Source of the DNA: Acidobacteriota bacterium
GTDB taxonomy: Bacteria > Acidobacteriota > UBA890 > WLXD01
NCBI GenBank assembly: GCA_963666055.2
Contig: CAXWPH010000002.1
Coordinates: 194,759 to 258,758 of the forward strand
DNA: 64,000 nucleotides
Direction of reading: 5' to 3'
Program-made: the position numbers and the translations under genes
In this document: positions 14,060-51,012 of the stretch, one piece after another
How positions within the stretch are numbered: position 1 is the first letter of the stretch
How the letters are laid out: every line of letters starts with the position of its first letter
Notes under the pieces: generated by a model
What the model was told of the DNA's origin: nothing
Seen by the model: only the letters and a program-made list of their open reading frames with translations
Database searches by the model: none

Positions 14060-14770
14060 ATGCTCGCAGCCCCGATACTGGAAGCCCGTCGCCTCACCAA
14101 GACTTTCACCGCATCTCACGGCAAGCTCACCGTGCTACGCGACGTCGACTTCGCCATCGCCGCCGGGTCGACGTGTGCCGTAGTCGGCCCGTCGGGAAGC
14201 GGCAAGACGACGCTGCTGGGGCTATGCGCCGGACTCGATCGTCCGACCTCCGGCGAGGTGTTGGTCGACGGTCAGCCGTTGAGCGAGCTTGACGAGGACG
14301 AGTTGTCGGCCCTACGCAACCGCAAGGTCGGATTCGTGTTCCAGAACTTCCAGCTGCTGGAAACCCTGACAGCGCTCGAAAACGTCATGGTGCCGTTGGA
14401 GTTGCGCGGCGACGCTAATGCCGCGTCGCGTGCCAAAGAGCTTCTCGACCAGGTCGGGCTCGATGACCGCCTCGATCACTACCCCGTACAGCTTTCGGGT
14501 GGCGAGCAGCAGCGCGTGTCGCTGGCGCGCGCCTTCATGAACGAGCCGTCGCTGCTGTTCGCCGACGAGCCCACCGGGAACCTCGACGGCGAGACCGGTG
14601 ATCGCGTGCAGGATCTGCTCTTCGACTTGAACGCCGCGCGCGGCACGGCGCTGATCGTAGTAACCCACGACGAGCGCCTGGCGCGACGTACCGAACGCAT
14701 CATTCGATTGCGCAACGGGGCGGTCGTTGCCGATAAAAAGACCGCCACTGCCGGGGCATCGGTAGCGTGA
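14060..14770 (+). CDS. ybbA: ABC transporter ATP-binding protein, YbbA/LolD-like
   Basis: Walker A GPSGSGKTTLL, FVFQNFQLL, signature LSGGEQQRVSLARA, Walker B LLFADEPTGNLD. Confidence 0.9.
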   Translation: MLAAPILEARRLTKTFTASHGKLTVLRDVDFAIAAGSTCAVVGPSGSGKTTLLGLCAGLDRPTSGEVLVDGQPLSELDEDELSALRNRKVGFVFQNFQLLETLTALENVMVPLELRGDANAASRAKELLDQVGLDDRLDHYPVQLSGGEQQRVSLARAFMNEPSLLFADEPTGNLDGETGDRVQDLLFDLNAARGTALIVVTHDERLARRTERIIRLRNGAVVADKKTATAGASVA

Positions 14771-21675: not shown

Positions 21676-23415
21676 GTGCCAACCGGGGAGCAAGCCCGCG
21701 TGACCGATCTTCGCAACCAAGAATTTCCGCGCACCTTCGTACCGGACAACATCGATCTCGGCAACTGGGAGGCGGTGCAGCCGTGGGTCGAAAAGCTGCT
21801 CGAGCGGCAACTGACGTCGGCCGCCGACCTGGAGCAGTGGTTGCTGGACCTTTCCGAGCTGCAGTCGTGTGTCTCCGAGGAGAGGGCTCGCCGCTATATC
21901 GCCATGACCTGCGATACCGAGGACGAGGCCGCCGAGCGTCGCTACCTGGAGCTCATCGAGCACTTCATGCCGGCCGCCAAACCGTGGTTTCACAAGCTCA
22001 ACGAGTACTACGTCGCCAGCCCACACCGGGTCGAGCTCGATGAGAGCCGCTATGCGGTTCTGGATCGAGGTACGGCCACGGACATCGAGCTATATCGCGA
22101 GCAAAACATCGAGCTACAGACCCAAGCGAGTGTCCTCAGCCAGCGTTACCAGAAGATCAGCGGTGCCATGACCGTGGAGTTTCGCGGCGAGGAGCGCACT
22201 TTGCCGCAGATGGGGAAGTTCCTCGAGGAGACCGATCGCGACCTGCGCCAGGAGGTCTGGGAGGCTATCTGGGATCGCCGCCTGCAGGATCGCGACGCCT
22301 GTGACGAGATCTTCGATGAGCTGGTCGAGCTACGGCATCAGATCGCGCTGAATGCCGACTGCTCCGACTATCGTGAATACACCTTCAAGTCGTACCACCG
22401 CTTCGACTACACGCCGGAGTCCTGCGAGCGATTCCACGAGGCCGTCGAAAGGGACGTCATGCCGCTCGTGCTGACCTTGGCTGATCAGCGTCGCTCGGCA
22501 CTCGGCGTCGATTACCTGCGACCATGGGATTTCGGCGTCGACCCCCTCGGTCGGCCACCGTTACGCCCGTTCGAAGACGTCAACGAGCTCGGGCAAGGGG
22601 TGCGCCGTATCTTCGCGCGCCTCGATCCCGAGCTCGAGGCCCAGTTCGTCAGCATGCTCGAGGGCGGCGAGCTCGACCTGGAATCGCGTAAGGGCAAGGC
22701 GCCAGGAGGCTATCAGTCGTCGTTGGAGGAAGTCCGGCGCCCGTTTATCTTCATGAATGCGGCGGGGTTGCATCGCGACGTCGAGACGTTGCTACACGAA
22801 TCGGGCCACGCCTTCCACGCTCTTGCCGCTCGCTACGAGCCGCTGGTGGAGTACCGCCACGCCCCGATCGAGTTTGCCGAGGTAGCCTCGATGACCATGG
22901 AGCTGTTCGGCGATGACCACCTTGACGAGTTCTACAGCGCCGCCGACGCGGCGCGTGCCAAGCGCAAGCACCTCGAAGGCATTATCGAGCTGCTCCCCTG
23001 GATCGCTCGTGTCGATGCCTTCCAGCACTGGATCTACACGAATCCGCAGCACACGCGGGAGGACCGTACGGCAGCCTGGCTACAACTGGGTGAGCGTTTC
23101 GAGGTACCGATCGAATGGACCGGGCACGAGGACCAACGCGACGCAGGCTGGCAGCGACAACTGCACATCTTCTGCTACCCGTTCTACTACATCGAATACG
23201 GCATCGCCCAACTTGGCGCATTACAGATCTGGAACACGTTCAAGCGCGATTCGGCTCGCGGCCTGTCCGACTATCGAGCTGCGCTGGCTCTTGGTGGCTC
23301 GCTTCCGCTACCGAAGTTGTTCGAGGCTGCCGGTGCGAAGCTCGCCTTTGATGAGCGCACCATCGCGCCGCTGATGGACCGAGTTGGGGAGGAACTGGCG
23401 ACGTTGCCTGCCTAG
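21676..23415 (+). CDS. pepF: oligoendopeptidase F-family metallopeptidase (M3B)
   Basis: Zn motif HESGHAFH. About 580 aa. C-terminal PFYYIEYGIAQLGALQIW is typical of PepF. Confidence 0.9.
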   Translation: MPTGEQARVTDLRNQEFPRTFVPDNIDLGNWEAVQPWVEKLLERQLTSAADLEQWLLDLSELQSCVSEERARRYIAMTCDTEDEAAERRYLELIEHFMPAAKPWFHKLNEYYVASPHRVELDESRYAVLDRGTATDIELYREQNIELQTQASVLSQRYQKISGAMTVEFRGEERTLPQMGKFLEETDRDLRQEVWEAIWDRRLQDRDACDEIFDELVELRHQIALNADCSDYREYTFKSYHRFDYTPESCERFHEAVERDVMPLVLTLADQRRSALGVDYLRPWDFGVDPLGRPPLRPFEDVNELGQGVRRIFARLDPELEAQFVSMLEGGELDLESRKGKAPGGYQSSLEEVRRPFIFMNAAGLHRDVETLLHESGHAFHALAARYEPLVEYRHAPIEFAEVASMTMELFGDDHLDEFYSAADAARAKRKHLEGIIELLPWIARVDAFQHWIYTNPQHTREDRTAAWLQLGERFEVPIEWTGHEDQRDAGWQRQLHIFCYPFYYIEYGIAQLGALQIWNTFKRDSARGLSDYRAALALGGSLPLPKLFEAAGAKLAFDERTIAPLMDRVGEELATLPA

Positions 23416-25708: not shown

Positions 25709-26407
25709 ATGACCACCATGAGAACGTACATGTGGCGAGCGACTTTGGCGGCACTGGTGCTGGCGCTGCTGCTGCCGGCGGCTGCTGAAGGGCAAAAGAA
25801 AAAGAAGAAGAAAAAAAAGAGCGCTGGCGCGGCCGTGCAGAAGACGGTGGCTGTCGAGGTGTTGCCGCTGTTCGACCGCGGTGCGTACTCTGCGGTCGTC
25901 GATGCGGTGGATAAGGCGGCTGGTCCGGAGGTTCGTGTTAGCCCTGACGCGCTGTTCGTCGCGGGTATGAGCCAGGAGGCGATGAGCGCCTTGGGCAGCG
26001 CCAGCAGGACATACGCCGGACTCGACAAGCTCGCCAGCAACGACCCCTGGCATTACCTGGGGGGATCCGCGGCGGCGTTGGTCGCCGGGGATCTCGATCA
26101 TGCGTTGAACGCCGCGGTACGTGGCGTCGAGCTAGCCAACGGTGACAAGGTGGCGCACAAGTACGCGCATTTCCAGCACGGCCGGGTATTGATGGCGCGC
26201 CAGGATTTCGCTGCATCGAGCGACGCCTTCATTCGCACGCTGCAGATCGACGGTCGGTTCGCCTATGCGCATTACTGGGCCGGATTCAGCTACAACAAAA
26301 CCGGCAACCTGGTGTCGATGACCAATCACTTCGAGCGTTTCCTGGAGCTGGCACCGGAGGCTCCGGAGCGCCAACAGGTCATGGCGATCCTGGCGGCGAT
26401 GCGCTGA
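25709..26407 (+). CDS. secreted TPR-repeat protein with a poly-lysine tract
   Basis: Signal peptide WRATLAALVLALLLPAAAEG followed by QKKKKKKKKS. TPR-like helices (e.g. AYAHYWAGFSYNKTGNLVSMTNHFERFLELAP). Confidence 0.75.
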   Translation: MTTMRTYMWRATLAALVLALLLPAAAEGQKKKKKKKKSAGAAVQKTVAVEVLPLFDRGAYSAVVDAVDKAAGPEVRVSPDALFVAGMSQEAMSALGSASRTYAGLDKLASNDPWHYLGGSAAALVAGDLDHALNAAVRGVELANGDKVAHKYAHFQHGRVLMARQDFAASSDAFIRTLQIDGRFAYAHYWAGFSYNKTGNLVSMTNHFERFLELAPEAPERQQVMAILAAMR

Positions 26408-26416
26408 CGACGCCGG

Positions 26417-29400
26417 TCAGAAGATGTGGCCGATGCCGAAATGGAAGCGCCCGCCAGGGGCGTCGGGCAGATGTGAAAGGTCGCTGAGGCGCACGCCGTA
26501 GTCGAGCCGCAGCGTCAGGTATGGGGTTACCAGCCGTATCCCCAGCCCGGTCGAGAGCTTCAGTCGTCCCAGGCGTATGTCAGAGGCCGTCGCGAAGGCA
26601 CTGCCTGCGTCCAGGAAGGCGACGCCGCGAATCCAGCGCCAGATCGGAAACCGCGCCTCTTGATTGAGCACCAGAACGGCGTTGCCGCCGGGGACGAAGG
26701 TGCCAAAGAAATCTGTGCCGCCAACGGTGCCATCCGGGTAGCCGCGGAGAGAGGTCGAACCACCGGCTACGAAGCGCTCGCTGCGTGGTAGCTGCGTCGA
26801 TGTGGGATCGAGACTGATGCCGCTGCCGAAGCGAATCGCGCTGGCGAAGGTCAGTCGGCCAAGGCTGAAGAACGCATATTGTTTCAAGTGCAGCTTGCGG
26901 AACAGTAGCTCCGACCCGAGCCGGGCCGGCGCCCATTCGAGGCTGGCGCTCTGGAACAGTCCGCGGCTGGGTTCGAGCCGATCGTCGCGGGTATCGTGGA
27001 TGATCGTCGGCACCAGACGGGCCGAGGTTACCGGCTCGAGTTGAAAGTCCTGGCCGACCAAGGTCGAACGAGCGCGCTTCAGGCTGTAGCTGTACCCGAC
27101 CGTCAGCGACGACGACAGGCTGAGGCGTTGCTCCAGGGCGAACTCGGTGTTGTCGACGCGGGTGGTGAAGAAGCCCTCGGTCTCGCTGCCTGAGCGCTCG
27201 CCGATCAGCGCGGTGCGTACCGGTGCTCCGAAAAGCCCGTGGAAGCCGAGCACACCGCGAATCAGTCTGTCCTTGCCGCGATAGCGGGCCGTCACACTGA
27301 GCTCGGCGGGCAGGCCGAGCAGGGCGCTGTGGCTCACCGTGGCGGCAACGCCCGCTTGTGTCTCGCGTTGATCCTCTAGGGTTTCGTCGCTCAACAGCTG
27401 AACTCCGTAACGTATCCGCAGGCGCGGCTGCTCCTCGACCTCCACACGCAGGACGACCGGTTGGCGCCCGTTGCTGGCCGGGCCACTATGTTGGACTTCC
27501 AGCTTGATGCGCTCGAACACGCCCGTAGCATAGAGGCGCCGCCTCGCCGCCTGGAGATCGCGCAAGACAAGAGGCGAGCCGCGTCGAGCCCTGACCGCGC
27601 CGGCGACGACCGAGCGGCGCACGCGTTCGAGGCCATCGATGCGCACATCCGTGAGGATCTGCTGCGGCGCTTCGTCGATATGCATCACGACGTCGACGCG
27701 GGAAGCTTCCGCGCTAGCCTCAATGGTTGCTCTTACGGTGGTGCCGTTGTGGCCCCGTTGGAGGTAGGCCTCGAGTACGGCGTCGACAGCCATGGCCAAC
27801 TCGCCGCGGTCGTAGGCATCGCCGGGCCGCGTTGCCAACACTTCGCGCAACGCCGCCTCGCCGACTGCCGCATTGCCGGCGAAGCTCACTTGGCCGAGCC
27901 GATAGCGATGCCCTTCGTCAATTTCGATGCGCATGCGTGCCTCGTCGCCGTCGATCTCGGGCCCAGAGGCCTGCACGACGGTGTCAAGCCAACCGCGCTC
28001 GACGTAGAGGTCGCGCACGGCGGACGCCAGCGCGTCCTGTTGTGTCCAATCGGTTGCCGCGAGCCCTTGCTCACGCAAGCGGCGGCGAATGGTGTCCGGG
28101 TCCAGGCCGGCGTTGCCGACTATGGCGGATTCACCTCGACGGTATCGCTCGCCTGGGTCGAAGCGCAGGAGGATCTCCTTGCGGGCTCCATCGGCGATTA
28201 GCTCGACAGCCACCGCGGGGCGCACGTGACCGCGCCCAGCCAGGTAGGCACGCACGATCTGCCGCATGTCTTCGAGAAGGAACTCGGTCAGGACGCTGTC
28301 TCCCCACGTCTCGAGCAACTCCTGACGCACGCCGTTCGGCAGGTTGCCCTCCACCGTGAGCACGGTTTCAGGGCCACGATCGATGGCGTACGTCAGGTCG
28401 ATGCCGGTGAACGAGCGCGGGTCCGTGCCTGCTGGCGGCGAGCGGCGGGCTCTGATGTCGACCTCCAGATATCCCCGCCGGTGGTATAGGCGCAACAAGC
28501 GGTCGCGGTCCTCCTGCCAGCGGAGGAAGTCGAAGCGATCGCCTGAGCCGACTCGCAACTCCCGCCGCAGGACATCCGCCGTGTAGCCCGAGCTTCCTTC
28601 GAATTGCACCGAGCGTACTCGCGGAGCGGTGCGGCCGGCACTGGCGCCACGTGTGTCGCCGCCCAGCACCAACTGATGCTGGAGCTCGACTGAGCGCGTG
28701 CCGTCGTCGAATGTGCCGCCGCGCAGCGCCAGACCGAAGGGAAGGCGCAGGGTTCCGATCCAGCTGCGCTCGTCGGTGTTGGTGAGGTTTTGCGAGAACA
28801 CCAGGTCGAACGTAGTCCCAATGCTCCTGGTAAGCGTGAGACGCGAGGTCAGGTCGGTATCGCGCGGAAACAATTCGCTCTGGGCTGCCGCGGCTACGCC
28901 GCCGCGCTCGAACCGCACCGACTCGAACCCCAGCTGGCGAACCGCACCGGCCAGATACTGGCCGGTGAGTAGGTCGAACGCTTGCTCCGCCAGTACCTCG
29001 CGGCCGGCGTTGCCGGCCGCCGCCACAGTGCGTCCGGTGGCCATGAGCGACAGCACGTCGCCGGAATCCAGACCGGATTCGGCGCTGGCTTCAACGATGG
29101 GGTTGAAGGCGCTGCCGGTGAGCAGAACGCTGATCTGCTCGCCACCGATCTCGGCACGCGCGGCGATGTTGAGCGTCGGTGCGACGCGGTTGGTCTCGGC
29201 GAACTCGATGATTCCTAGATCGACACTGTAGGCGTTGCCGGCGAGGCGTACGATGCCGCCCTCGCGCACCGTCATCCGGCCCAGCACGCCGGGGCGCGCG
29301 AACGTGCCGACGATCTGGAGGTCGACGGCTAGGCCGAGCTCTGCGTAGGGGGTGTCGATACGGAGGTCGTCAACCGTGCTGACGCGTATGTCGTAGCTCA

Positions 29401-32400
29401 GGTCGTCAAGCGGCGTGGGCGAGGCGGACGCACGCGCTTGGGTCGCGGCCGAGGCCCCCAGCAGGTCGGCCGCGAGAGCGGCGTCGGTGCGATAGCCACC
29501 CGCCAGCAGGCGTATTTCGCCAAAGGCCCGGAGGCTGCCCTGCGGCGACGCGCTGATGGTCACGTCCGCGTCGCCGAGCGCCCGACCGCCGCCGCCCTCG
29601 ACCACGATCGAGCGTGCGGTGATCCGGGCGAGCCCGGTGGGGCGCATGGGATCGGCCAGGTCGAAGTCGAGAAACAGCATCGCCTCGCCACCGTTGACGA
29701 TGCCGTGTAGCCCGTCGGTGTGTATCTGGGTGTCGGTGATCGTCAGCGTGCCGTTGACGTCGCTCACCACGACCTGCGGATCAGCGACAATAAAACCGAC
29801 GTCCGTGAGTACGATACGTCCGTCGAAGCTGGGCCGTGTCGCCGTGCCGGTGATTTCGAGTGTGGCGTGTGCGCCCCCCTCGACTGCCCCAGCCTTGATC
29901 ATCGGCACGATCCAGCCGAGCTGCAGCTGTGACTCGAGCCGCAAATCGAGCTGCTGTCGATCACCGAGCTCGATTGCGCCCGTCACAATCAAACTGACTT
30001 CGTCCCCACCCGGCCGCGTCCATATCCAGTCGACGATACGCACTACTCCGTCTTCCAGGCGCAGTCGTGTCGGTCGAAGCTGGGACACTGTGATGCCGTT
30101 GCTGCTGAGCCTCAACGAGTCCAGCTGGAGATCTGCTCGGGCGTCGGCGAGCTCCAATGTGGGCATAGCCACCTGCAGCGACAAGGTGGCCTCGCCGTCG
30201 AGCTCGGCGGTCAGCTCGGGACCCAGGAGCAACGCTAGCTCGGCGGCGCTTACGGGGCCGAGCCGAGCCCGCAATACTGCCGGCTCGGGTGCCGGCCGTT
30301 CGGTGTCTCCGACAAGCAGGGCCAGCGGGATCTCTGCATCGGCTTCCAGCTCGGCGCCTTGCCAGCGCCCTCGCAACTCTCCCAGATGCAAGCCGCGCCC
30401 GTCGACCGAGGCTTGCAGCTGTACGCCTTCGAGCGTCGTTGTGTTGTCGAGCTGTACTTCGCCGTCGACGATTCGAACTGATCCCTCGGGTTGCGGCTCC
30501 AACAGCGTACCGCCGACGTGCAGCTCGGCATCAAGATCTCCGGACAACACGACCCGTCGCGTGTCGGGCGCGCCGGTGGCGAGCGTCAGCCCCATCGTGG
30601 CCAGGTCAGAGAGCCGCGAAAGGTCTCCGCGCAACCGGCCGTGGAGACCCGGCAGGGCGGGATCGCTGCCCAGCACACCGGCAACCGATAGGTCGAGGTC
30701 GCCGACGCGCAGCGCCAAGTCCTCGATGCTCACCTCGGTCGGACTCCACATCACCCGTCCGGGAATCACGCTGCGAACCGGGAATCGTGGTAGGTCCACG
30801 TACAACGACCAAAGGTCGACCACTATGGTCGATGTCGTAAGATCGACGCCGAGAGCGACTTCGGCGCGGGCCGATTCAATGTAGGCGAGCTCCGGCCGAT
30901 CACCGAGGTCGCCGGGTGCCGGCAGATCAAGCTCCCCCAGGAGGTCGATGTGCTTGCCGCCCGGGTCGATTACTCCGCTGACCTTTATCCGGTTGTTGCC
31001 GGCACTGGCAGTCAGTTCGTCGATGCGAATGCCGTGCGTGGCGGGCGACAAGCGAGCCCGCGCATCAATGGGTACGCCGCCGCCGATGCGAATGGCGTGC
31101 GCGTCGACGGTGCCCTCGATTCCCGGGAGAGGTAGTAGCCCCTGGAACGTCAGGTCCCAATCAAGCGATCCGCTGATGCCACCGCCGGCGACCAGTCGCT
31201 CGCCCAGCCGCACAGCGTCGAGGGCGGCTTCGAGATCGGTCACATGGCCACGTACTCGTCCTGCGACGTGGCCACTGGCGTACAGCTCCAGGTCGGCTTC
31301 CATGGTGCCGCCAGGGAACTGCACCGACGCATCACGCAGGGTGATCGAATCGCCGCTTGTCGCGATGTCGGCGGCCGCCGTCAACCAACCCGCAGCGCCG
31401 AAACGAAGCTGCTCGACCCGAGCGTGCCCGGAGATCCGCGGTTCGAGCAAGGTTCCGGTGACAGCGAGCTCCGCCGTTGCTTGCCCATCTGCCGTGGCAA
31501 GCGCCTCCAGGAGATCGGGTGCAACGTCGCTGAGACGACGAGCCACCGAGCCAACGTTGTCGACGGTGAGGTGTGCCGTCCCGTCGAGAGTGCGGCCCTC
31601 GACAGCACCCGTCAGCTCGGCCCCGATCCACAGCCCCGCAGCTACGTCGACGTCGATGCTGGCGCGCCACACACCGGCGGACAAGACGGCCTCCAGGCGT
31701 CCATCGAGCGGTACCGCGTCCGCGTCCGGCGAGCTCTCGTTGAAGCTCATCAGCAAGGACGCGGTGGTGTCTGCGACTGCCGGTGCCAGCCCAGGCCACT
31801 CGGCGTGCGCCTCACCGCTCAGCCGTGTGGCGGGAACGATCCAGCCGGAGCCCGGTGCTGCGGCGAGTAGCCGTACGGGATCGACATCCTCCCACCTCAC
31901 TACGAAGTGGCTCACCGTGCCCGCCGCGAGGCCGATGTGCAGGTCACCGGTGAGATCGCCGCCGCCGAGTTCGGCGCGCAGCGCATCGATGCGGATCGCC
32001 TGCTGGTCGGCCTGGATGTGACCGCGCAGTCGTCGCAGCGACACCCCCCTCGATGACGCCGTCTCGATATCCAGCATCATATCTACAGTCGGCGCCGGCG
32101 CCGGGCCGCTTAGCGGCCCCGCCACCGACAGCGCGCCGCCGGCGACGTCGAGCCCGACAAGTTCGCCTAGTGTGTCCAGCAGGACTTGCGTCCGGACCTC
32201 GAGCGCCAGCTCGCGGTCGGCAAGCAACCGTTCGATGGTGCCGTCGATCTCCAGGCGGGCTGCGGCGCTGTCGAAGCGCAGCTGGTCGATGCCCAAGTTG
32301 CGCCCGTCCCAGCTAAGCTGGCCTCCGGAGAGTTCGATCTGCGCTTGGCGGTCGGCGATGCGCAGACTTGCCGCACCCAGCATCTCGAGCTGTGGCTTTA

Positions 32401-32914
32401 TCGCATCCCCGAGATCGAGCCGGATGTCGCCGGCGTCGAATTCATAGCCCGCCGCTGCATCGTGCCACTCGATTTGCAGCTCGGAGATACGCAGTCGCTT
32501 CACCGGCACCGGCGCGGCGACACTCATTCCGCCACTCTCGAAATTACTGGTACCGTCTGCGGCCACGAAGACGGTGAGGCGTGGCCTTCTCAGCTCGATG
32601 TGCTGGAACGACAATCCGCGCCAGACGGAGCTCCACGGCAGATCGAGGGTGAGCTCGTCGGCATCGAAATACGGGCGCTCCTGGCCCGGAGTGCGCAGTT
32701 GTAGCCCGTGCAATCGAAACCATAGTGTCGGTAGCCGGTAGTCGAGCCGATCAGCATGCACGCCCCCTTCGGGGGCGATCCGTGCCAGCACGGCAGCGAG
32801 CACGCGCGCCCGCGCCCACGGCGTGTGCAGGGCGGCGATTCCGGCGACCGCCGCTAGAGCCGCCAGAGCACAGAAGACCAACAACCGGCGGCGGCGACTC
32901 GACATGCGTATCAT
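26417..32914 (-). CDS. TamB-like (AsmA N-terminus ... DUF490 C-terminal module) fused to Omp85/BamA-TamA-like (about 5 POTRA + beta-barrel) protein
   Basis: One uninterrupted ORF (track 26417..33049). Likely start is MIRMSSRRRRLLVFCALAALAAVAGIAAL (32914), avoiding the divergent gene at 32946. DUF490-like ...ISVLLTGSAFNPIVEASAESGLDSGDVLSLMATGRT...VELQHQLVLGG ends near 28660. POTRA repeats run from RVRSVQFEGSSGYTADVLRRELRV (about 28621). The barrel has RFVAGGSTSLRGY, FLDAGSAF and a terminal GRFHFGIGHIF. Confidence 0.85.
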   Translation of the reverse strand: MIRMSSRRRRLLVFCALAALAAVAGIAALHTPWARARVLAAVLARIAPEGGVHADRLDYRLPTLWFRLHGLQLRTPGQERPYFDADELTLDLPWSSVWRGLSFQHIELRRPRLTVFVAADGTSNFESGGMSVAAPVPVKRLRISELQIEWHDAAAGYEFDAGDIRLDLGDAIKPQLEMLGAASLRIADRQAQIELSGGQLSWDGRNLGIDQLRFDSAAARLEIDGTIERLLADRELALEVRTQVLLDTLGELVGLDVAGGALSVAGPLSGPAPAPTVDMMLDIETASSRGVSLRRLRGHIQADQQAIRIDALRAELGGGDLTGDLHIGLAAGTVSHFVVRWEDVDPVRLLAAAPGSGWIVPATRLSGEAHAEWPGLAPAVADTTASLLMSFNESSPDADAVPLDGRLEAVLSAGVWRASIDVDVAAGLWIGAELTGAVEGRTLDGTAHLTVDNVGSVARRLSDVAPDLLEALATADGQATAELAVTGTLLEPRISGHARVEQLRFGAAGWLTAAADIATSGDSITLRDASVQFPGGTMEADLELYASGHVAGRVRGHVTDLEAALDAVRLGERLVAGGGISGSLDWDLTFQGLLPLPGIEGTVDAHAIRIGGGVPIDARARLSPATHGIRIDELTASAGNNRIKVSGVIDPGGKHIDLLGELDLPAPGDLGDRPELAYIESARAEVALGVDLTTSTIVVDLWSLYVDLPRFPVRSVIPGRVMWSPTEVSIEDLALRVGDLDLSVAGVLGSDPALPGLHGRLRGDLSRLSDLATMGLTLATGAPDTRRVVLSGDLDAELHVGGTLLEPQPEGSVRIVDGEVQLDNTTTLEGVQLQASVDGRGLHLGELRGRWQGAELEADAEIPLALLVGDTERPAPEPAVLRARLGPVSAAELALLLGPELTAELDGEATLSLQVAMPTLELADARADLQLDSLRLSSNGITVSQLRPTRLRLEDGVVRIVDWIWTRPGGDEVSLIVTGAIELGDRQQLDLRLESQLQLGWIVPMIKAGAVEGGAHATLEITGTATRPSFDGRIVLTDVGFIVADPQVVVSDVNGTLTITDTQIHTDGLHGIVNGGEAMLFLDFDLADPMRPTGLARITARSIVVEGGGGRALGDADVTISASPQGSLRAFGEIRLLAGGYRTDAALAADLLGASAATQARASASPTPLDDLSYDIRVSTVDDLRIDTPYAELGLAVDLQIVGTFARPGVLGRMTVREGGIVRLAGNAYSVDLGIIEFAETNRVAPTLNIAARAEIGGEQISVLLTGSAFNPIVEASAESGLDSGDVLSLMATGRTVAAAGNAGREVLAEQAFDLLTGQYLAGAVRQLGFESVRFERGGVAAAAQSELFPRDTDLTSRLTLTRSIGTTFDLVFSQNLTNTDERSWIGTLRLPFGLALRGGTFDDGTRSVELQHQLVLGGDTRGASAGRTAPRVRSVQFEGSSGYTADVLRRELRVGSGDRFDFLRWQEDRDRLLRLYHRRGYLEVDIRARRSPPAGTDPRSFTGIDLTYAIDRGPETVLTVEGNLPNGVRQELLETWGDSVLTEFLLEDMRQIVRAYLAGRGHVRPAVAVELIADGARKEILLRFDPGERYRRGESAIVGNAGLDPDTIRRRLREQGLAATDWTQQDALASAVRDLYVERGWLDTVVQASGPEIDGDEARMRIEIDEGHRYRLGQVSFAGNAAVGEAALREVLATRPGDAYDRGELAMAVDAVLEAYLQRGHNGTTVRATIEASAEASRVDVVMHIDEAPQQILTDVRIDGLERVRRSVVAGAVRARRGSPLVLRDLQAARRRLYATGVFERIKLEVQHSGPASNGRQPVVLRVEVEEQPRLRIRYGVQLLSDETLEDQRETQAGVAATVSHSALLGLPAELSVTARYRGKDRLIRGVLGFHGLFGAPVRTALIGERSGSETEGFFTTRVDNTEFALEQRLSLSSSLTVGYSYSLKRARSTLVGQDFQLEPVTSARLVPTIIHDTRDDRLEPSRGLFQSASLEWAPARLGSELLFRKLHLKQYAFFSLGRLTFASAIRFGSGISLDPTSTQLPRSERFVAGGSTSLRGYPDGTVGGTDFFGTFVPGGNAVLVLNQEARFPIWRWIRGVAFLDAGSAFATASDIRLGRLKLSTGLGIRLVTPYLTLRLDYGVRLSDLSHLPDAPGGRFHFGIGHIF

Positions 32915-32945
32915 TCTGCCAAATCCTCGTTTGCGGAGTCTGACC

Positions 32946-33489
32946 ATGGAAACGGCCTGGATCGATACCCTCAGCGACGAAAGCGCCTCTCCGGAGCTCG
33001 CCAAGCTGTACGATCGTGCGCTCGACCCTGTCTCCGGCGAGCTCGACAACGTCCTCCGGGTGCACTCGCTGCACGCCGCTGGACTCAGCGCCCACCTCGA
33101 GCTCTATACCGCGGTGATGCGCGGTACACCCGGGCTGCGCACCGTCGAGCGCGAGATGATCGCGCTCGACGGTGTCGCAGTTGAACGGCTGCGGCTACTG
33201 AATCACCCATCACCGGCGTGGTTTACGCCGGCTGCTGCGCGACGACGAGCTCGCTGGTCGCATCGAGTCGAACTACCAGAATGCGGATCTCGGCGGCCGT
33301 CGCCTGGCTATGCTGTGCTTTACGGAGAAGCTCACGCTGCGCCCCTCAGAGATGCAACGCGCCGACGTGCTCGCCTTGCGTGCGGCTGGCTTCGGCGACC
33401 CGGACATTCTGGGCATCGTCGAGGTAGTCTCCTACTATGCCTACGTGAACCGCATCGCTGACGGTCTGGGAGTTGCACTTGAAGCCTGA
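32946..33489 (+). CDS. AhpD/carboxymuconolactone-decarboxylase-family 'peroxidase-related enzyme'; in-frame TGA (candidate Sec) plus one upstream 1-nt frameshift
   Basis: Frame 0 reads METAWIDTLSDESASPELAKLYDRALDPVSGELDNVLRVHSLHAAGLSAHLELYTAVMRGTPGLRTVEREMIAL up to 33167. After skipping nt 33168, frame +1 reads TVSQLNGCGY[TGA]ITHHRRGLRRLLRDDELAGRIESNYQNADLGGRRLAMLCFTEKLTLRPSEMQRADVLALRAAGFGDPDILGIVEVVSYYAYVNRIADGLGVALEA, stop at 33487..33489. This fits the AhpD core motif E-x11-C-x2-C-x3-H with TGA at the second Cys. Confidence 0.7.
33213..33231 (+). promoter_or_regulatory. SECIS-like stem-loop downstream of the in-frame TGA
   Basis: CCGGCGT-GGTTT-ACGCCGG: a perfect 7-bp stem with a GGUUU loop. 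It starts exactly 11 nt after TGA 33199..33201. Confidence 0.5.
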
Positions 33490-34051: not shown

Positions 34052-35001
34052 CGCCGCTGAGCCGGCACCCGAAGCGCGTGGCGTTGAGCGTGGCGACGAT
34101 CAGCGCCATGGTTCTGGCGTGCCAGCCACCCCCTGGCGACCTGCGCATTGCTTGGGCGCCGGTGGAGTCGTTCAACCGCGGGTTGCCAGACCGGATTCGT
34201 GTGTATGCTGGCGCCGATCCCAGCATCCCGTTACGCGCTTGGTACGTAAGGGTGCAGCGACACAGCGGCGGCCAGCTCGCCCGGGTATCGATCTCCACCG
34301 ACGACGACGGCGTGGAGACGATTTCGGAGTTCGCGGCCCGGACATCGGCGCGTGTGGTCATTAACGCGGGATTCTTCCGCACCGACACCGAGCTACCGCA
34401 ACACATCGGCCTCTTGCTGATCGATCAAGTGCTCCTACAGCGGCCGCTGACGTCGGTCATCTACGACGAGCAGCGCTACTACGTGGCACGTGCGGCGCTC
34501 GGTTTGATGCTTGACGGTTCGGCTGACGTTCTCTGGGTCACCGGACACGAAGGCTTGCTTTACGAACAATCGGAGCCACCGCAGAATGTGCCGAACGCGC
34601 CGGCGGCGGAACCGCAGGCTGATTCCTTGGTCGAGTGGCCGGTGCGCGACGCGGTAGCCGGGGGGCCGGTCCTGGTTGACGCTGGTGAGGTGCGAGTCAC
34701 GAGTCATCAAGAAGTTTTCTTTGGCACCGCTAGCGAAGAGGCGCATCCGCGCTCAGCGGCGGGCGTAACCGCCGCGGGAGAGTTGATCGTCATAGTGGTC
34801 GATGGTCGCCAACGGGAGAGCCGTGGGGTAGATCTGCGGGAGCTGGCCGAGCTGATGCGCGACGTCGGCTGCGTCGAGGCGCTCAATCTCGACGGCGGTG
34901 GATCGTCGACGCTGGTCGTTGACGGCGCACTGGTAAACCGGCCGCTGGGGAGTGAGTCGCAGCGCGAGGTCATGTCGGCGCTGATGGTCATGGAACCTTG
35001 A
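34048..35001 (+). CDS. phosphodiester glycosidase-family (DUF2233/NAGPA-like) lipoprotein
   Basis: Lipobox-like ISAMVLAC. Motifs VVINAGFF, RSAAGVTAAGELIVIVVDGRQ..SRGVDLRELAELMRDVGCVEALNLDGGGSSTLV. GTGA overlap with the NUDIX stop. Confidence 0.75.
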   Translation: MTPLSRHPKRVALSVATISAMVLACQPPPGDLRIAWAPVESFNRGLPDRIRVYAGADPSIPLRAWYVRVQRHSGGQLARVSISTDDDGVETISEFAARTSARVVINAGFFRTDTELPQHIGLLLIDQVLLQRPLTSVIYDEQRYYVARAALGLMLDGSADVLWVTGHEGLLYEQSEPPQNVPNAPAAEPQADSLVEWPVRDAVAGGPVLVDAGEVRVTSHQEVFFGTASEEAHPRSAAGVTAAGELIVIVVDGRQRESRGVDLRELAELMRDVGCVEALNLDGGGSSTLVVDGALVNRPLGSESQREVMSALMVMEP

Positions 35002-35039
35002 AGGCCTGCCGGGCCGCTGAAGATGGAGGGGATCAGACA

Positions 35040-36341
35040 ATGTCGAGGCGTTTTTGGTCGGTGGCGGTGTCGGGGTGGCTCGTGGTTGTTGCGGGGTGCT
35101 CCGCGCCTGAGCCGATCGAGGTTACTGAAGCCGATTTTGGGGCTGTGGCGCGTGGCATCCACGAGCGCGTCATCACTATCGATACTCACGACGACATCCC
35201 CGCGAGCTTTGCCACCACCGAGGTCGATCCGGGCGTTCGTGGCGATCGGCAGGTCGACCTGCCCAAGATGCGCGAGGGCGGCCTCGATGTGGCGTTCTTC
35301 GTCGTCTTCGTGGGTCAAGGCGACAACGACGCCGCCGGATACACTGGTGCCTACGAACAGGCGATGACGAAGTTCGAAGCGATCCATCGGCTGACCGAGC
35401 AGATGCACCCGGACTTGATCGAGCTGGCCACCAGCGCCGCTGATGTGGAGCGCATCGTTGGCGAGGGCAAGCTGGTGGCGGCGATCGGTATCGAGAACGG
35501 CTGGCCGGTGGGCGAGGACCTGACGAACGTCGCCAAGTTCCACGAGCTGGGTGGAGGCTATTTCGGATTGGTACACAACGGGCACAACCAGATCGCCGAC
35601 TCCACCAATCCGCGCGACGGCGAGCCCGCCGAGCTGCACGGTGGCGTGAGCGACTATGGCGCCGAGGTGATCGCCGAGGTCAACCGCGTGGGCATGATGA
35701 TCGACGTGTCGCACGCCTCCAAGGCAGCCATGCTCGAGGCCCTGGAGCTGTCTCAGGCGCCAGTGATCGGGTCGCACTCGGGATGCAGCGCGCTGTGCGA
35801 TGTGAGCCGCAACATGGATGACGAGCAGCTGCTGGCCCTGAGGGAGAACGGTGGCGTGATTCAGATGGTTGCGCTCGGTGACTTCGTGAAGATCACGTCG
35901 GAGCGCGAGGCGGCCATCGACGAGCTGGCGCGCGAGATCGCCGGCATGGACAGCATGCGGGCGCTACGCCGTAGCCGTTTCTCCGCCCCCGAGGAGGAGC
36001 GTCCTGCGATCGAGCTGCAGCTGGCCGAGATTCAGGCGAGAGTGGTGGCGGAGGTCGATCCCGTGTATCCAGCGGCGAGCGTCGCCGACTTTGTCGATCA
36101 CATCGACCACGCCGTGAACCTGATCGGTCTCGAGCATGTCGGTATCAGCTCCGACTTCGACGGCGGCGGTGGCGTGGTCGGCTGGAACGACGCCAGCGAG
36201 ACCCTGAACGTGACGCTGGAGCTTGTCCAACGTGGCTATAGCGAGGACGAGATCCGCGCTCTCTGGGGCGGTAACCTGCTGCGCGTTTGGCGTGAGGTAG
36301 AGGAGGTGGCGCGGAGCATGCAGGCGTCGGGAGCTAGCTGA
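35040..36341 (+). CDS. membrane dipeptidase (peptidase M19), lipoprotein
   Basis: Start MSRRFWSVAVSGWLVVVAGC (ATG 35040). Motifs VITIDTHDDIP, GGLDVAFFVV, IENGWPVG, MIDVSHAS, VIGSHSG. ORF-track start is 34998. Confidence 0.9.
   Translation: MSRRFWSVAVSGWLVVVAGCSAPEPIEVTEADFGAVARGIHERVITIDTHDDIPASFATTEVDPGVRGDRQVDLPKMREGGLDVAFFVVFVGQGDNDAAGYTGAYEQAMTKFEAIHRLTEQMHPDLIELATSAADVERIVGEGKLVAAIGIENGWPVGEDLTNVAKFHELGGGYFGLVHNGHNQIADSTNPRDGEPAELHGGVSDYGAEVIAEVNRVGMMIDVSHASKAAMLEALELSQAPVIGSHSGCSALCDVSRNMDDEQLLALRENGGVIQMVALGDFVKITSEREAAIDELAREIAGMDSMRALRRSRFSAPEEERPAIELQLAEIQARVVAEVDPVYPAASVADFVDHIDHAVNLIGLEHVGISSDFDGGGGVVGWNDASETLNVTLELVQRGYSEDEIRALWGGNLLRVWREVEEVARSMQASGAS

Positions 36342-36923: not shown

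Positions 36924-36924
<1 letters not shown>
36526..36924 (+). CDS. hypothetical 4-TM membrane protein
   Basis: 132 aa with four hydrophobic segments. Its stop overlaps the start of the M32 gene by 1 nt (TGATG). Confidence 0.6.
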
Positions 36925-38419
<1,495 letters not shown>

Positions 38420-38423
<4 letters not shown>

Positions 38424-38623: not shown

Positions 38624-40768
38624 ATGCATCGCCGCGCGCTCACGCTGTTGACCCTCATCCTCAGCCTGGGGGTGATCCTTGGTCCGACATCGAGTATGGC
38701 TCAGGAGGCGGCATCCGCAGAAGCGGAGCCTGGCCGTCTGGCTGCCGAAGACACCCTACGAATCAGCAATGTCGGCAACCCGCGCTTCTCGCCGGACGGT
38801 GAGTGGGTGCTATACACCGTGGCGGCGCGCGATATGGATGACGACGAGCTGTCGCGCTATACACACCTGTATCGCGTACGTGTGGATGGCACCGGCGGGC
38901 GGCAACTGACCCGGGGAGACAGCTCCGCCAGCTCGCCGCAGTGGTTTCCGTCGGGCGACAAGTTCGCCTTCCTTCGCGAGGTCGACGACGCCAGTCAGGT
39001 ATATGCCATGCACACCGATGGTGGTGAGGCCTGGCAGGTGACAGATTCCGAGGAAGGGGCGGGCACCTACGGGATCTCTCCGGACGGCGGCAAGATCTGG
39101 TTTGTGGCGCGTAACCCCGAGACCGCCGAGCAGAAGCGGCGCGCCGAGCAGCACGACGATGCCGTCGTCGTCGATGCCGAGTTCCGCTTCAGCCACCTCT
39201 GGGTGCACGATATGGAGGCGGGTGAGTCGACGCGGCTGACGGAGGGCGACTTTACGGTTAGCGACCCGCGTTGGTCGCCTGATTCCAGCCGTATCGCCTT
39301 CGTTACGCGGCCGACGACCAAGGTGAACGACGGCTGGAACAGCGACATCCGCGTCGCCGATGTTGCCTCGGGCGAGTCTCGTGTGCTGTTCGAGAACCCC
39401 GGCCCCGACAGCTCGCCGCGCTGGTCTCCGGACGGCGACAAGATCGCCTTCACGGCCAACACCCACACCGGAACAACGGTCTGGCACAGCAAGCTCTACC
39501 TGTTGCCGGCAGATGGCGGCGGCGAACCCGAGATCTTGCTCGAGGACTTCGACTTGAACGCCGGCCCGCCGATTTGGGCTCCCAACGGCGTCGATATCTA
39601 CTGGGCCACCGGTGAGCGTACCAACGTGGCGCTTTACTCGGTGCAGGTAGCTACCGACGAAGTTCTGCGGCACGGTGTGCCCTCGGGCGCCAACTTCCAG
39701 TTCCAGCTGTCGCCCGATGGCGGCCGCTGGGTATGGGTGCACTCCAACCCGACGCATCCATCGGAGCTCTACACCGCGCCGTCGAACGATCTGTCGCAGC
39801 TCACGCGTCTCACCACCCACAATGCCTGGCTGGCCGAGTCGTTCGAGCTCGCCGCCGCCCGCCCCATCACCTGGACCAACTCCGACGGTCAGGAGATCGA
39901 GGGCGTGGTGCACTTTCCGATCGGGTATCGGGAGGGGACGGCGTACCCGCTTATCGTCCACCCGCACGGTGGTCCCAGCGGCGCGGTGACGACGTCGTTC
40001 AACTCCACCAACCAGATGCTCGCCGCCAACGGCTTCCTGGTGTTCCAGCCCAACTTCCGCGGCAGCTCCAACTACGGCCAGGAGTTCCTCAACGCCAACC
40101 GTGACAACTGGGGCACACGCGACTACGACGACATCATGACCGGGGTCGACGACCTCATCGCGCGCGGCTGGGCCGATGCGGATCGGATGGTCGCCTACGG
40201 ATGGAGCTACGGTGGCTACATGACCTTCTGGATGTCCACCCAGACCGATCGATTCAAGCTGATCTCACCGGGTGCCGGGCTCACCAACTTGTACTCGATG
40301 TACAGCACGACCGACATTCCGGGATACATGGGGTGGTTCTTCGGCACGCCGTGGGACGACGAGGACGCGTACCGACGCCACTCGCCCATCCGCCACGTGA
40401 AAAACGTCACTGCCAAGATGTTGATCATGCACGGCGCCGACGATGCCCGCGTGCCCCCGGGGCAGGCGGTGGAGTTCTATCAGGCGCTGCGCGATTTGGG
40501 TAAGGACGTGACGTATGTGTCGTACCCACGTCAGGGCCACGGTATCGCCGAGCCGCGACTGCAGGTGGACCGCCTGCGCCGCTACGTGTGTGCGTTCACC
40601 GACGCGGTGAGTATCGAGGCCACAACCGAGGAGTGTGACGATGGCGTCCCGGCGATAGTGGCCGACGACGAGGAGGAGAGCGCAGAAACGGCGGCGGCGT
40701 CAGGTCGCGCTCCAAACGCCAGCGAGCTCGACACCGGCGTCTATCGGGTGATTCAGTTCCACCGCTAG
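38624..40768 (+). CDS. S9-family serine peptidase (acylaminoacyl-peptidase / DPP-like) with an N-terminal beta-propeller
   Basis: Signal peptide. Repeated SP(D/R)GxxI(A)F propeller motifs. Nucleophile elbow GWSYGGYM, HGADDARVP, and QGHG catalytic His. Confidence 0.9.
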   Translation: MHRRALTLLTLILSLGVILGPTSSMAQEAASAEAEPGRLAAEDTLRISNVGNPRFSPDGEWVLYTVAARDMDDDELSRYTHLYRVRVDGTGGRQLTRGDSSASSPQWFPSGDKFAFLREVDDASQVYAMHTDGGEAWQVTDSEEGAGTYGISPDGGKIWFVARNPETAEQKRRAEQHDDAVVVDAEFRFSHLWVHDMEAGESTRLTEGDFTVSDPRWSPDSSRIAFVTRPTTKVNDGWNSDIRVADVASGESRVLFENPGPDSSPRWSPDGDKIAFTANTHTGTTVWHSKLYLLPADGGGEPEILLEDFDLNAGPPIWAPNGVDIYWATGERTNVALYSVQVATDEVLRHGVPSGANFQFQLSPDGGRWVWVHSNPTHPSELYTAPSNDLSQLTRLTTHNAWLAESFELAAARPITWTNSDGQEIEGVVHFPIGYREGTAYPLIVHPHGGPSGAVTTSFNSTNQMLAANGFLVFQPNFRGSSNYGQEFLNANRDNWGTRDYDDIMTGVDDLIARGWADADRMVAYGWSYGGYMTFWMSTQTDRFKLISPGAGLTNLYSMYSTTDIPGYMGWFFGTPWDDEDAYRRHSPIRHVKNVTAKMLIMHGADDARVPPGQAVEFYQALRDLGKDVTYVSYPRQGHGIAEPRLQVDRLRRYVCAFTDAVSIEATTEECDDGVPAIVADDEEESAETAAASGRAPNASELDTGVYRVIQFHR

Positions 40769-41676: not shown

Positions 41677-43506
41677 CTAGTTCGCAGCGAGGACGCGGTC
41701 CACTTCGACAGCTACCGCCGCAGCCAGTTCGCCGCACTCGCTGAGGGCGGATTCGATCTCGCCCCGCATCTCGGCGCCGAAGTCGGCATCGTCGATGTGC
41801 CGCAGGTTGATGCGCACGTTGTAGGCTGCCGCCTGCGCCCCTGCGTGTGCCAGCAGCGCGCCAGTGCCGGCGTCGCTGATCATCTCGGGGTCGGCCATGG
41901 TGGCGATCTCGCGGCACAGGCGAAGCGCGTCGCGACACTGTTGCACGGTGGCCAGCGGCACGCGGGTGGCGGCCTTGTAACCCTCCTGCATGGCCTCGGC
42001 GCGCTCGGCCTGTTGGGCCCCTGTGTCGCGCGGCATACGCATGGCCTCGAGCACCTTCTCGAAGGCGCTGGTGTCGGCGTCGACGCCACGCAGCAGGGCG
42101 TCCTTGACGGCCTGGCCGCGCTCGGCGATTGAGCAGAGCCGGTCGTACCGATCGCTGAACTCGCCCTTGCCGACGCTGAGGTTGGCCACCATCGCAGCGA
42201 GGCCGCCGCCCAACGCCCCCGCCAATGCAGCGACCGAGCCGCCGCCCGGCGCCGGCGTGTCGCGCGACACCTCGTCGACGAAGTCGAAGGTGGTGCGGTT
42301 CACCAGCGGGCCGTCCGTCAGAGGCATTGCCAACACCTTCTCGTCGGCCTCGAACGGCGCCACGTCGCGCAGCCCCATCGACTGGATCGCCGTCTCCATC
42401 AGGTCGGGTACCGGCGCGCCGGTCGATTTGCGCATGCGACGCAGGTAGAACAGCGCCGCCTCGCGCATCACCGCGTAGGGCACCACGCCGACGATCTCGG
42501 AGCCGGTAATGGCGATGCCGCGCTCCCGTGCCGCCTCGCGCGTCGCCTCGAGCACGTCGTGCAGCGCCGCCTCCTTGGTGTTGGTGAGATTCATGCTTAC
42601 CTGGGCGCGCTTGAACTCGTCGATCACCCAGCCGATTGCCTTGACGTGGGTGAACTGCCCGTCGGTGTACACCGGGCCAGTGGGGTTGTCGGGGTCGATC
42701 CCCAGGTCTTCGTAGCGCTGGCGCAGATCACCGCCGTGCTCGTCGCGATAGTGCGTCTCAAGCTCCTCGAACGAGGCGCCGACGAAGTCGCAGGGTCCGC
42801 ACGGGTAGGTGCCGTCGCCGCGGAACTTCACTACCGTGCCCTTGTAGTAGAAGGGCTCGATGTTGCCGGTGCGTTTCCAGCGTCCGCGCTCGCGCACCGT
42901 GTAGGCGATCTCGTTGGCGTAGCGTCGATCGGTGGTGTTCAAATCGACGTTGTAGGCGACCAGAAACTCGCGTGCGCCGACCGCGGTGGCTCCGGCGCCA
43001 GCGTTGAATTCGGTGGGTCCGAAGTCGGGCGTCCACTCCGGGTCGGCCAGCTTGTCTTCAAGTCCCTCGTACTCTCCCGCTCGCACCCGCGACAGGTTGC
43101 GCCGCTCCGGTCGGCTGGCGGCGTTCTCATACAGGTACACGGAAATACCGAGCTCCGTGCCTATGCGTGCGCCGACCTGCCGGGCGATCTCGGCGCAGTC
43201 CTCCATGCTGACGCCGGAAACGGGTACGAACGGCAGCACATCGGTGGCGCCGAATCGCGGATGGGCGCCCGAGTGTTGCCGCATGTCGATCAGCTCGGCG
43301 GCCCGCTGTACCGCCTGGAACGCGGCTTCGGCCACAGCCTCGGGTGCGCCGGTGAACGTGACCACGGTGCGGTTGGTGTCGGCCCCGGGATCGACATCGA
43401 TCAGGCGCACGCCGGCAACGCCCTCGATGGCGGCGGTGATCTCGCGGATCACGCCCTTATCCCGGCCTTCCGAGAAGTTGGGAACACATTCGACGATGCG
43501 GTCCAT
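41677..43506 (-). CDS. ftcD: bifunctional glutamate formimidoyltransferase / formimidoyltetrahydrofolate cyclodeaminase (FTCD-like)
   Basis: N-terminus MDRIVECVPNFSEGRDKGVIREI...VDPGADTNRTVVTFTG (formiminotransferase). C-terminal cyclodeaminase motif SRDTPAPGGGSVAALAGALGGGLAAMVANLSVGK. Confidence 0.9.
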   Translation of the reverse strand: MDRIVECVPNFSEGRDKGVIREITAAIEGVAGVRLIDVDPGADTNRTVVTFTGAPEAVAEAAFQAVQRAAELIDMRQHSGAHPRFGATDVLPFVPVSGVSMEDCAEIARQVGARIGTELGISVYLYENAASRPERRNLSRVRAGEYEGLEDKLADPEWTPDFGPTEFNAGAGATAVGAREFLVAYNVDLNTTDRRYANEIAYTVRERGRWKRTGNIEPFYYKGTVVKFRGDGTYPCGPCDFVGASFEELETHYRDEHGGDLRQRYEDLGIDPDNPTGPVYTDGQFTHVKAIGWVIDEFKRAQVSMNLTNTKEAALHDVLEATREAARERGIAITGSEIVGVVPYAVMREAALFYLRRMRKSTGAPVPDLMETAIQSMGLRDVAPFEADEKVLAMPLTDGPLVNRTTFDFVDEVSRDTPAPGGGSVAALAGALGGGLAAMVANLSVGKGEFSDRYDRLCSIAERGQAVKDALLRGVDADTSAFEKVLEAMRMPRDTGAQQAERAEAMQEGYKAATRVPLATVQQCRDALRLCREIATMADPEMISDAGTGALLAHAGAQAAAYNVRINLRHIDDADFGAEMRGEIESALSECGELAAAVAVEVDRVLAAN

Positions 43507-50824: not shown

Positions 50825-51012
50825 TGTGCCGGCGTCGGCGCACCACCATCGAAGCGCCGACGCCGTCCCGATACGTCGCCCGACTCGTTGGCGCGGCCGC
50901 CCGCATCTCGGTACCCTCTGGCGCGTCGTCCCGTGCGCATCCGTGTCGTGCACGGTCCGAATCGAAGTCGACCCATGCGATGCACCCGTGCCGTCGCGAC
51001 CCGGAGCTACCG

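Follow-up and report, generated by a model that had tools for sequence, protein, structure and literature searches.

In the TAM (translocation and assembly module) of Escherichia coli, the C-terminal beta-signal strand of the DUF490 region of TamB pairs with strand beta1 of TamA, and the resulting stable hybrid barrel has been described by cryo-electron microscopy and in vivo (PMC13119328). Of the strands of E. coli TamB, six lie within the outer membrane, and the beta-taco of the protein carries lipid-like density (PMC13119328). The present analysis concerns a gene in which a TamB module and an Omp85 module are encoded as a single polypeptide. The gene lies within a 64,000-nt stretch of an Acidobacteriota genome (assembly GCA_963666055.2, contig CAXWPH010000002.1, positions 194,759 to 258,758 of the forward strand), which is referred to as the window and supplies all unlabelled coordinates below. 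An earlier note, made from the letters of this stretch, had proposed the fusion.

Several related arrangements have been reported. In Borrelia burgdorferi, the C-terminal domain of TamB binds several POTRA domains of BamA (PMC5582053, PMC11361582), and the operon order in spirochaetes is TamB-BamA (Heinz 2015, PMC4494059). A second, TamB-linked BamA was found in Acidobacteria and Aquificae and was proposed as the origin of the TAM (Heinz et al. 2015, PMC4494059); the words “fusion”, “fuse” and “single polypeptide” do not occur in that paper. Among proteins with an additional module at the N-terminus of Omp85, the patatin-Omp85 protein PlpD and a WD40-Omp85 protein, the latter likened to a BamA-BamB fusion, are known (PMC4104836). 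That 2014 survey of Omp85 proteins lists other N-terminal fusions, none of them TamB-Omp85. Full-text literature searches yielded no description of a TamB-Omp85 fusion, in agreement with the earlier note, whose author knew of no characterised example. As far as we can tell, the fusion is visible in databases and has been neither discussed nor characterised.

The fused gene and its product

The ORF (open reading frame) listing of the 64-kb window contains a single minus-strand frame at 26417..33049, which would encode 2,210 amino acid residues if started at TTG. The ATG at 32914 gives a product of 2,165 residues, and its translation runs without an internal stop. The features of this gene, all on the minus strand, are as follows (AlphaFold2 models; pLDDT, predicted local distance difference test score).

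26417..32914 (-): fused TamB-Omp85 gene, 2,165 codons plus a stop codon at 26417-26419; product of ~235 kDa
32828..32899 (-): N-terminal signal-anchor, a helix at residues ~6-29 that follows RRRR; predicted from hydropathy and as an AlphaFold2 helix
32405..32905 (-): AsmA/DUF748-type N-terminal region, residues 4-170; weak Pfam match
28658..32914 (-): complete TamB module, residues 1-1419; long beta-taco ending in the DUF490 region
28934..29065 (-): helical segment within DUF490, residues ~1284-1327; DSSP helices, low pLDDT from model residue 298
28664..28843 (-): five terminal TamB strands, residues 1358-1417, ending in SVELQHQLVLGG; DSSP strands
28622..28657 (-): linker DTRGASAGRTAP, residues 1420-1431; stands where unfused relatives have a stop codon and an Omp85 signal peptide
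27485..28621 (-): five POTRA domains, residues 1432-1810; Pfam, AlphaFold2 and PDB sequence search
26420..27466 (-): Omp85 beta-barrel, residues ~1817-2165; SLRGY and FLDAG motifs, terminal GRFHFGIGHIF

The claim that one continuous frame carries the TamB-like and Omp85 modules was borne out, as the translation is unbroken and contains all the peptides that had been quoted. The four-part architecture that the note had described was recovered by translation, Pfam, AlphaFold2 models and hhalign comparison with E. coli TamB, and so was the B-then-A order of the modules. When the proposed hmmscan search was run, TamB/DUF490 was found upstream of the POTRA repeats. The GC content was even along the whole gene. 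An identical protein of 2,165 residues (P0001) is on public record, from a metagenome-assembled contig of 3.19 Mb, and annotation pipelines name both halves (“TamB domain-containing protein”, “BamA/…TamB”).

The N-terminal anchor and the TamB module

Only one hydrophobic transmembrane segment was found in the protein (residues 11-29, hydropathy 2.69; the runner-up segment reached 1.38). In the AlphaFold2 model of residues 1-1000, built from a 25-sequence alignment, a helix at residues 6-29 was followed by ~70 beta strands (pLDDT 84.9). Hydropathy and model thus gave the signal-anchor and long continuous beta-taco that characterise the TamB/AsmA-like bridge proteins. The N-terminal region matched DUF748 in Pfam with E 1.2e-10 (40.6 bits, under the cut-off of 50); the YhdP and AsmA matches there were weak, and the precomputed match to TamB_N was faint.

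The TamB/DUF490 family PF04357 was matched in three stretches with 72.6 bits, above its cut-off of 22.4, which places the protein in that family. The fold class of the TamB body rests on the AlphaFold2 model together with hidden Markov model (HMM) matches, the fold matches in the PDB being weak. A fold search of the PDB with the N-terminal beta-taco returned weak and non-specific matches to ApoB100 and LptD (E ~1e-7 to 1e-4), a class of long beta-sheet lipid binders, and the TamB chain 9xdc_B was matched with E 0.23. The NCBIfam equivalog model for TamB (NF047952) scored 38.6 bits against a cut-off of 825. Judged from these profile scores, the fused protein is a distant member of the TamB family and not an orthologue-level match to the TamB equivalog.

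BLASTP against E. coli TamB gave no match, and only profile comparison succeeded. By hhalign, residues 797-1404 of the family were collinear with residues 652-1248 of the 1259 residues of E. coli TamB (97.8%, E 9e-13), and the last 11 residues of the latter, QALDLLYQFEF*, matched RSVELQHQLVLGG in an alignment made by eye. Because it is collinear with E. coli TamB nearly to its end, the TamB module is taken to be complete up to the linker, and on this alignment the linker begins where E. coli TamB ends. The consensus of the family at this end is YEFRHxxxFGG, and the family residue at the position of E. coli TamB D1252 is acidic (by eye). In the model, the five terminal strands are candidates for outer-membrane-embedded strands, with a last strand resembling a beta-signal. 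The helical segment within DUF490 occupies the place that amphipathic helices take in TamB and may, by analogy, be equivalent to the helix alphaH3 of E. coli TamB (PMC13119328).

The linker between TamB and POTRA1

The linker of ~12 residues that had been described proved to comprise exactly residues 1420-1431. It is non-hydrophobic and disordered in the AlphaFold2 model (pLDDT <50), and a hydropathy analysis of the whole protein revealed no hydrophobic segment at the TamB/POTRA junction. In 184 proteins of the family, the linkers were 8-22 residues long (median 14), variable, rich in Arg, Ala and Pro, and never hydrophobic. Two apparent linkers of 245 residues were rejected, given that the POTRA1 HMM had matched POTRA3 instead. 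Lengths confined to so narrow a range speak for a constraint of geometry rather than for a disposable spacer. Since the Omp85 half lacks a separate export signal, it can reach the periplasm only within the TamB chain, by export in cis.

The POTRA domains and the Omp85 barrel

The POTRA region was matched in Pfam with E 2e-33, and POTRA3-5 of BamA aligned with it in the PDB sequence search; Omp85 was matched with E 1e-31 at residues 1922-2165. In the AlphaFold2 model of residues 1001-2165 (30 sequences; pLDDT 76.9; predicted template modelling score 0.62), the order was beta-taco, helices, five strands, linker, five beta-alpha-alpha-beta-beta POTRA domains and barrel. The earlier estimate of about five POTRA-like repeats was thus confirmed as exactly five modelled units. 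The modelled barrel has ~16 strands (residues 1817-2161). Together with the POTRA domains, the loop-6 motif (V/I)RG(Y/F), present as SLRGY, and the terminal Phe, it has the features that define the Omp85 superfamily. The C-terminus GRFHFGIGHIF, which the note had recognised as of the outer-membrane protein (OMP) type, is consistent with this, ending as it does in Phe.

The identification of this half as TamA did not hold. The PDB sequence search with the Omp85 half gave BamA (9cmw_A, 4e-22) ahead of TamA (8us1_A, 5.6e-11), and Foldseek gave BamA 7nri_A (3e-39 over ~820 columns) ahead of TamA 4c00 (1e-28); hhalign against E. coli TamA reached 99.3%. The TamA equivalog of NCBIfam (NF047950) scored 98.3 bits against a cut-off of 625, and the protein has five POTRA domains, not three. 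The BamA equivalog (TIGR03303) scored 193.9 bits, below its cut-off of 297.15, and the gene does not lie in the rseP/uppS-bamA-skp-lpxD neighbourhood that belongs to the definition of bamA; its neighbours are genes for NUDIX, NAGPA, M19 peptidase, TPR and methyltransferase proteins. On the sequence and fold comparisons, the Omp85 half is therefore described here as BamA-like, and not as TamA.

Conservation of the fusion

The TamB-Omp85 fusion is real and conserved across a large family. Thirty full-length homologues (1,941-2,319 residues), ranging from 87% down to 25% identity, had the same Pfam architecture. A genome scan of one genome per GTDB species, using junction-specific patterns from a 4-sequence alignment, found 27 species-representative genomes that match through the junction in frame. 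All of these are metagenome-assembled genomes (MAGs) of Acidobacteriota, and those classified further belong to Vicinamibacterales, Vicinamibacteraceae or Luteitalea. Such narrow patterns probably under-sample the family beyond Vicinamibacterales, and a 13-sequence alignment of the junction was too little conserved. Among the 22 loci that lie clear of contig ends, 19 had at least 1,287 residues upstream of the junction and ~635-670 residues downstream of it in one frame.

When the last 1,165 residues served as the query of an exhaustive HMMER search, 1,199 proteins fell below E 1e-30. Among the best 150 clusters at 50% identity (to E 1e-111), all 150 matched query residues ~10-1165 in one stretch. 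The TamB tail and POTRA1 were present in this order in 184 of 188 family proteins; the last residue was Phe in 178 of the 184 family members, and the median length of the Omp85 part was 737 residues. With the same in-frame junction in its relatives, the fusion is inherited and conserved and no artefact.

One family fragment of 450 residues (P0338, in the cluster of P0020) came from a 1,351-bp contig labelled Ilumatobacteraceae (Actinomycetota). It most likely reflects a binning error and not the presence of the family in a monoderm lineage.

Split relatives and the probable origin of the fusion

Apparent splits of the gene were analyzed at the DNA level. In L031, a syntenic close relative with an apparent TamB of 1,423 residues and an Omp85 of 730 residues (P0005), the split was rejected, given that a 1-nt frameshift precedes the junction by 35 codons and homology carries on across the junction in the other frame. 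The split in L022 was rejected in the same way, as the Omp85 part runs on in another frame, and P0179 was rejected as a natural split, being a fragment whose start falls within the final strand of TamB. The nucleotide sequences thus indicate that the apparent splits in the close relatives that were checked are sequencing errors or decay, and not natural splits. The frameshift sites in these relatives, which are long-read MAGs, lie at L031:7780-7960 and around position 10,800 of L022. Through frameshifts of this kind, gene callers report separate TamB and Omp85 products, so that the “split” forms of the family in databases need to be checked at the DNA level.

Genuine unfused tamB->omp85 pairs were found on three contigs of ~71-73% GC (L034:2748-9693, L035:4093-11018 and L032:2-3657). 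In L034, a tamB of 1,245 residues overlaps the downstream omp85 (919 residues) by 19 nt; in L035, a tamB of 1,303 residues overlaps an omp85 of 1,005 residues by 4 nt; and in L032, the upstream ORF, cut by the contig end, finishes in a TamB-like strand and overlaps the omp85 (933 residues) by 4 nt. The unfused TamB proteins end in aromatic-rich, beta-signal-like sequences (…YALEVKWQRRY*, …FKLRWEIE* and …IRWRFTFR*). All three Omp85 proteins start with their own signal peptide, and ~570-610 residues, roughly seven POTRA lengths, lie between the signal peptide and the barrel. The identity of these pairs to the fused family is only ~24-30%, and one of the three contigs is labelled as a Pseudomonadota MAG. 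The comparison of BLASTP matches and synteny that had been proposed found relatives fused through the junction as well as genuine split pairs.

From the sequences of these loci, the probable source of the fusion is an overlapping tamB->omp85 pair in which the stop codon and the signal peptide of Omp85 were lost, and the unfused pairs are likely to represent the ancestral state. The B-then-A order, to which the note had drawn attention, is present but not exotic, given that the unfused pairs share it.

Proposed mechanism and alternative explanations

We consider it probable that the protein is a single-chain, hard-wired trans-envelope bridge of the TAM type. The N-terminal signal-anchor would remain in the inner membrane, and the remaining ~2,130 residues would be exported via Sec. 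The TamB beta-taco of ~1,400 residues would then cross the periplasm as a lipid-conducting groove, and the C-terminal Omp85 barrel would be inserted in the outer membrane. The last TamB strands would dock on or into the barrel of their own chain, as in E. coli TamAB, and the short linker and the five-POTRA arm would close the loop on the periplasmic side. We infer that the chain stays uncleaved, that the hybrid barrel is intramolecular, and that the protein serves phospholipid transport rather than OMP assembly. If the last TamB strand runs antiparallel to beta1, as the substrates of BamA do, the C-terminus of TamB would be periplasmic, and by this analogy a continuation of the chain into POTRA1 appears topologically possible.

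Two statements of the note on the interface require revision. The contact between the TamB C-terminus and POTRA1, given there as the known one, is now joined by the hybrid barrel of a TamB strand and TamA beta1 (PMC13119328). The view that the covalent link is the interface itself did not stand, as the link is a short tether that closes the loop from the last TamB strand to POTRA1.

Four points weigh against the proposed bridge. The terminal TamB strands were modelled at moderate confidence only (pLDDT ~54-74). The column of TamA K283, the partner of TamB D1252, is not basic in the Omp85 half, in an alignment of ~20% identity that is unreliable per residue. The disordered Arg/Pro/Ala linker could be open to cutting by a periplasmic protease. 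Finally, the field disputes whether the TAM moves lipids or assembles OMPs (PMC13119328).

If the linker were cut, the gene would encode a polyprotein, exported as one chain for 1:1 stoichiometry and co-delivery and then cleaved to TamB and Omp85. The low pLDDT (<50), variability and Arg/Ala/Pro-rich composition of the linker would make it accessible to proteases, and the split relatives function as two chains. However, the linker contains no conserved cleavage motif, and its length is tightly held to 8-22 residues in 184 proteins, suggesting a geometric role; cleavage of this kind is therefore regarded as unlikely. That the two halves are joined only by a missed stop, a frameshift or a chimeric assembly of two adjacent genes is extremely improbable. 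Indel errors in the fused gene do occur in related long-read MAGs, but they break the gene rather than join it. Moreover, 27 independent species genomes and more than 150 sequence clusters, which stem from many projects, carry the junction in frame; the Omp85 half lacks a separate signal peptide, and GC is uniform along the gene.

A different question is whether the Omp85 half is the principal or only BamA of the cell, in which case the core of the beta-barrel assembly machinery would be permanently linked to TamB, with OMP insertion as the chief task of the protein. The five POTRA domains and the best sequence and fold matches, which are BamA chains, would agree with such a role, as would the result that neither the 64-kb window nor ~0.5 Mb of related loci, a small sample of ~20 kb per genome, contained a second Omp85 gene. 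In a profile search with the Omp85 half, no match fell on any contig known to carry the fused gene; P0207-P0212, considered as the canonical BamA of the same genomes, were rejected as BamA of Flavobacteriales. The score of the Omp85 half, however, stays below the BamA equivalog cut-off of NCBIfam (193.9 vs 297), the NUDIX, peptidase and TPR context is unlike that of the uppS-bamA-skp (ompH) comparison locus, and the closest unfused relatives are Omp85 partners in tamB->omp85 pairs. Acidobacteria have been reported to possess a TamB-linked copy in addition to a canonical BamA (Heinz et al. 2015, PMC4494059), and substrate folding is not to be expected of a barrel whose lateral gate TamB occupies. 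A main role in OMP insertion is thus judged quite unlikely, and we equally doubt that Vicinamibacteria have no BamA-type protein other than the fused Omp85. If this were so, OMP insertion and bulk lipid supply would be physically coupled in one polypeptide reaching from the inner to the outer membrane, and a lipid bridge would be attached to every BamA of the cell.

The docking of TamB-type bridges on the outer membrane is under debate, with two questions at issue, namely whether the TamB-Omp85 hybrid barrel is stable or transient and whether the TAM is a lipid mover or a protein folder (PMC13119328). A conserved natural fusion provides independent evolutionary evidence on the first of these, and it indicates that TamB and Omp85 work as a fixed 1:1 unit with no need for partner exchange. 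The protein would also be unusual in combining, within one polypeptide, an alpha-helical anchor in the inner membrane with a complete beta-barrel in the outer membrane. It raises the question for biogenesis of how a barrel still tethered to the inner membrane is inserted, and structural studies of a full-length bridge could take it as a single-chain target.

Gene neighbourhood and other genes of the window

The fused gene stands alone. On one side it is divergent from a group of NUDIX, phosphodiester-glycosidase and M19-peptidase genes, and on the other it is followed by a convergent gene.

25709..26407 (+): secreted TPR protein of ~232 residues, convergent neighbour; the stop codons are 9 nt apart

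In 14 of 19 Vicinamibacterales loci, this TPR gene is the immediate neighbour of the fused gene. Genes for TPR proteins likewise lie beside distant fused members (L029:5353-5985 and L030:12669-13478) and after the split pair of L034 (L034:9313-9693). The product may be an unrecognised third component or partner. Its interpretation as a BamD analogue was rejected, given that only generic TPR similarity and nothing specific to BamD was found. In the TPR protein, eight consecutive lysines (KKKKKKKK; ~25790-25820 (+), residues ~29-37) come right after the signal peptide. This run is confined to the close clade of the window (4 of 14 aligned homologues) and is unusual for a region of ~62% GC.

The window is also dense in peptidase genes, for M3, M19 dipeptidase, M32 carboxypeptidase, S9 prolyl oligopeptidase and M14 carboxypeptidase, which suggests a peptide-scavenging lifestyle.

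21676-23415: peptidase gene
34998-36341: peptidase gene
36924-38423: peptidase gene
38624-40768: peptidase gene
50638-53652: peptidase gene

Two genes for ABC permeases of the MacB/FtsX type with large periplasmic domains, at 14767-17310 (+) and 44222-45946 (+), are unrelated to the fusion. A bifunctional formiminotransferase-cyclodeaminase of 609 residues is encoded at 41677-43506 (-), with strong Pfam matches to FTCD_N, FTCD and FTCD_C.

Comparison with known systems

Like the E. coli TAM, the fused protein has a TamB beta-taco that is signal-anchored in the inner membrane and closes with DUF490, an Omp85 module that bears a POTRA arm, and a last TamB strand that has remained beta-signal-like. 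The E. coli system, however, consists of two proteins in the order tamA->tamB, and its TamA has three POTRA domains and its own signal peptide, whereas in the window a single chain leads from TamB to Omp85, has five POTRA domains and lacks an internal signal peptide. The fused protein thus falls outside the proteobacterial definition of the TAM, which calls for two subunits, tamA then tamB, although it is expected to work like one. The unfused pairs of L034, L035 and L032 have the same gene order and the aromatic-rich TamB end, and in L034 a small TPR gene follows as well. They differ in consisting of two polypeptides, with an Omp85 of 919-1,005 residues that carries a signal peptide and roughly seven POTRA lengths in place of five.

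In Borrelia burgdorferi, TamB is likewise paired with a five-POTRA BamA and not with TamA, but the two are separate proteins and that BamA is the sole canonical BamA of the cell. The second BamA of Heinz et al. comes from the same phylum and is a BamA-like Omp85 dedicated to TamB; it differs in being encoded by a separate gene, in the BamA->TamB order, and in having seven POTRA domains in some cases. PlpD and WD40-Omp85 provide a precedent for a partner or passenger placed N-terminal to an Omp85 barrel, although their modules are periplasmic or secreted and none is a membrane-anchored, periplasm-spanning bridge. In the TIC236-TOC75 system of chloroplasts, an inner-envelope TamB homologue contacts an outer-membrane Omp85 barrel (PMC10345924), as is proposed here within one chain, but there the two partners are separate proteins of a eukaryotic organelle.

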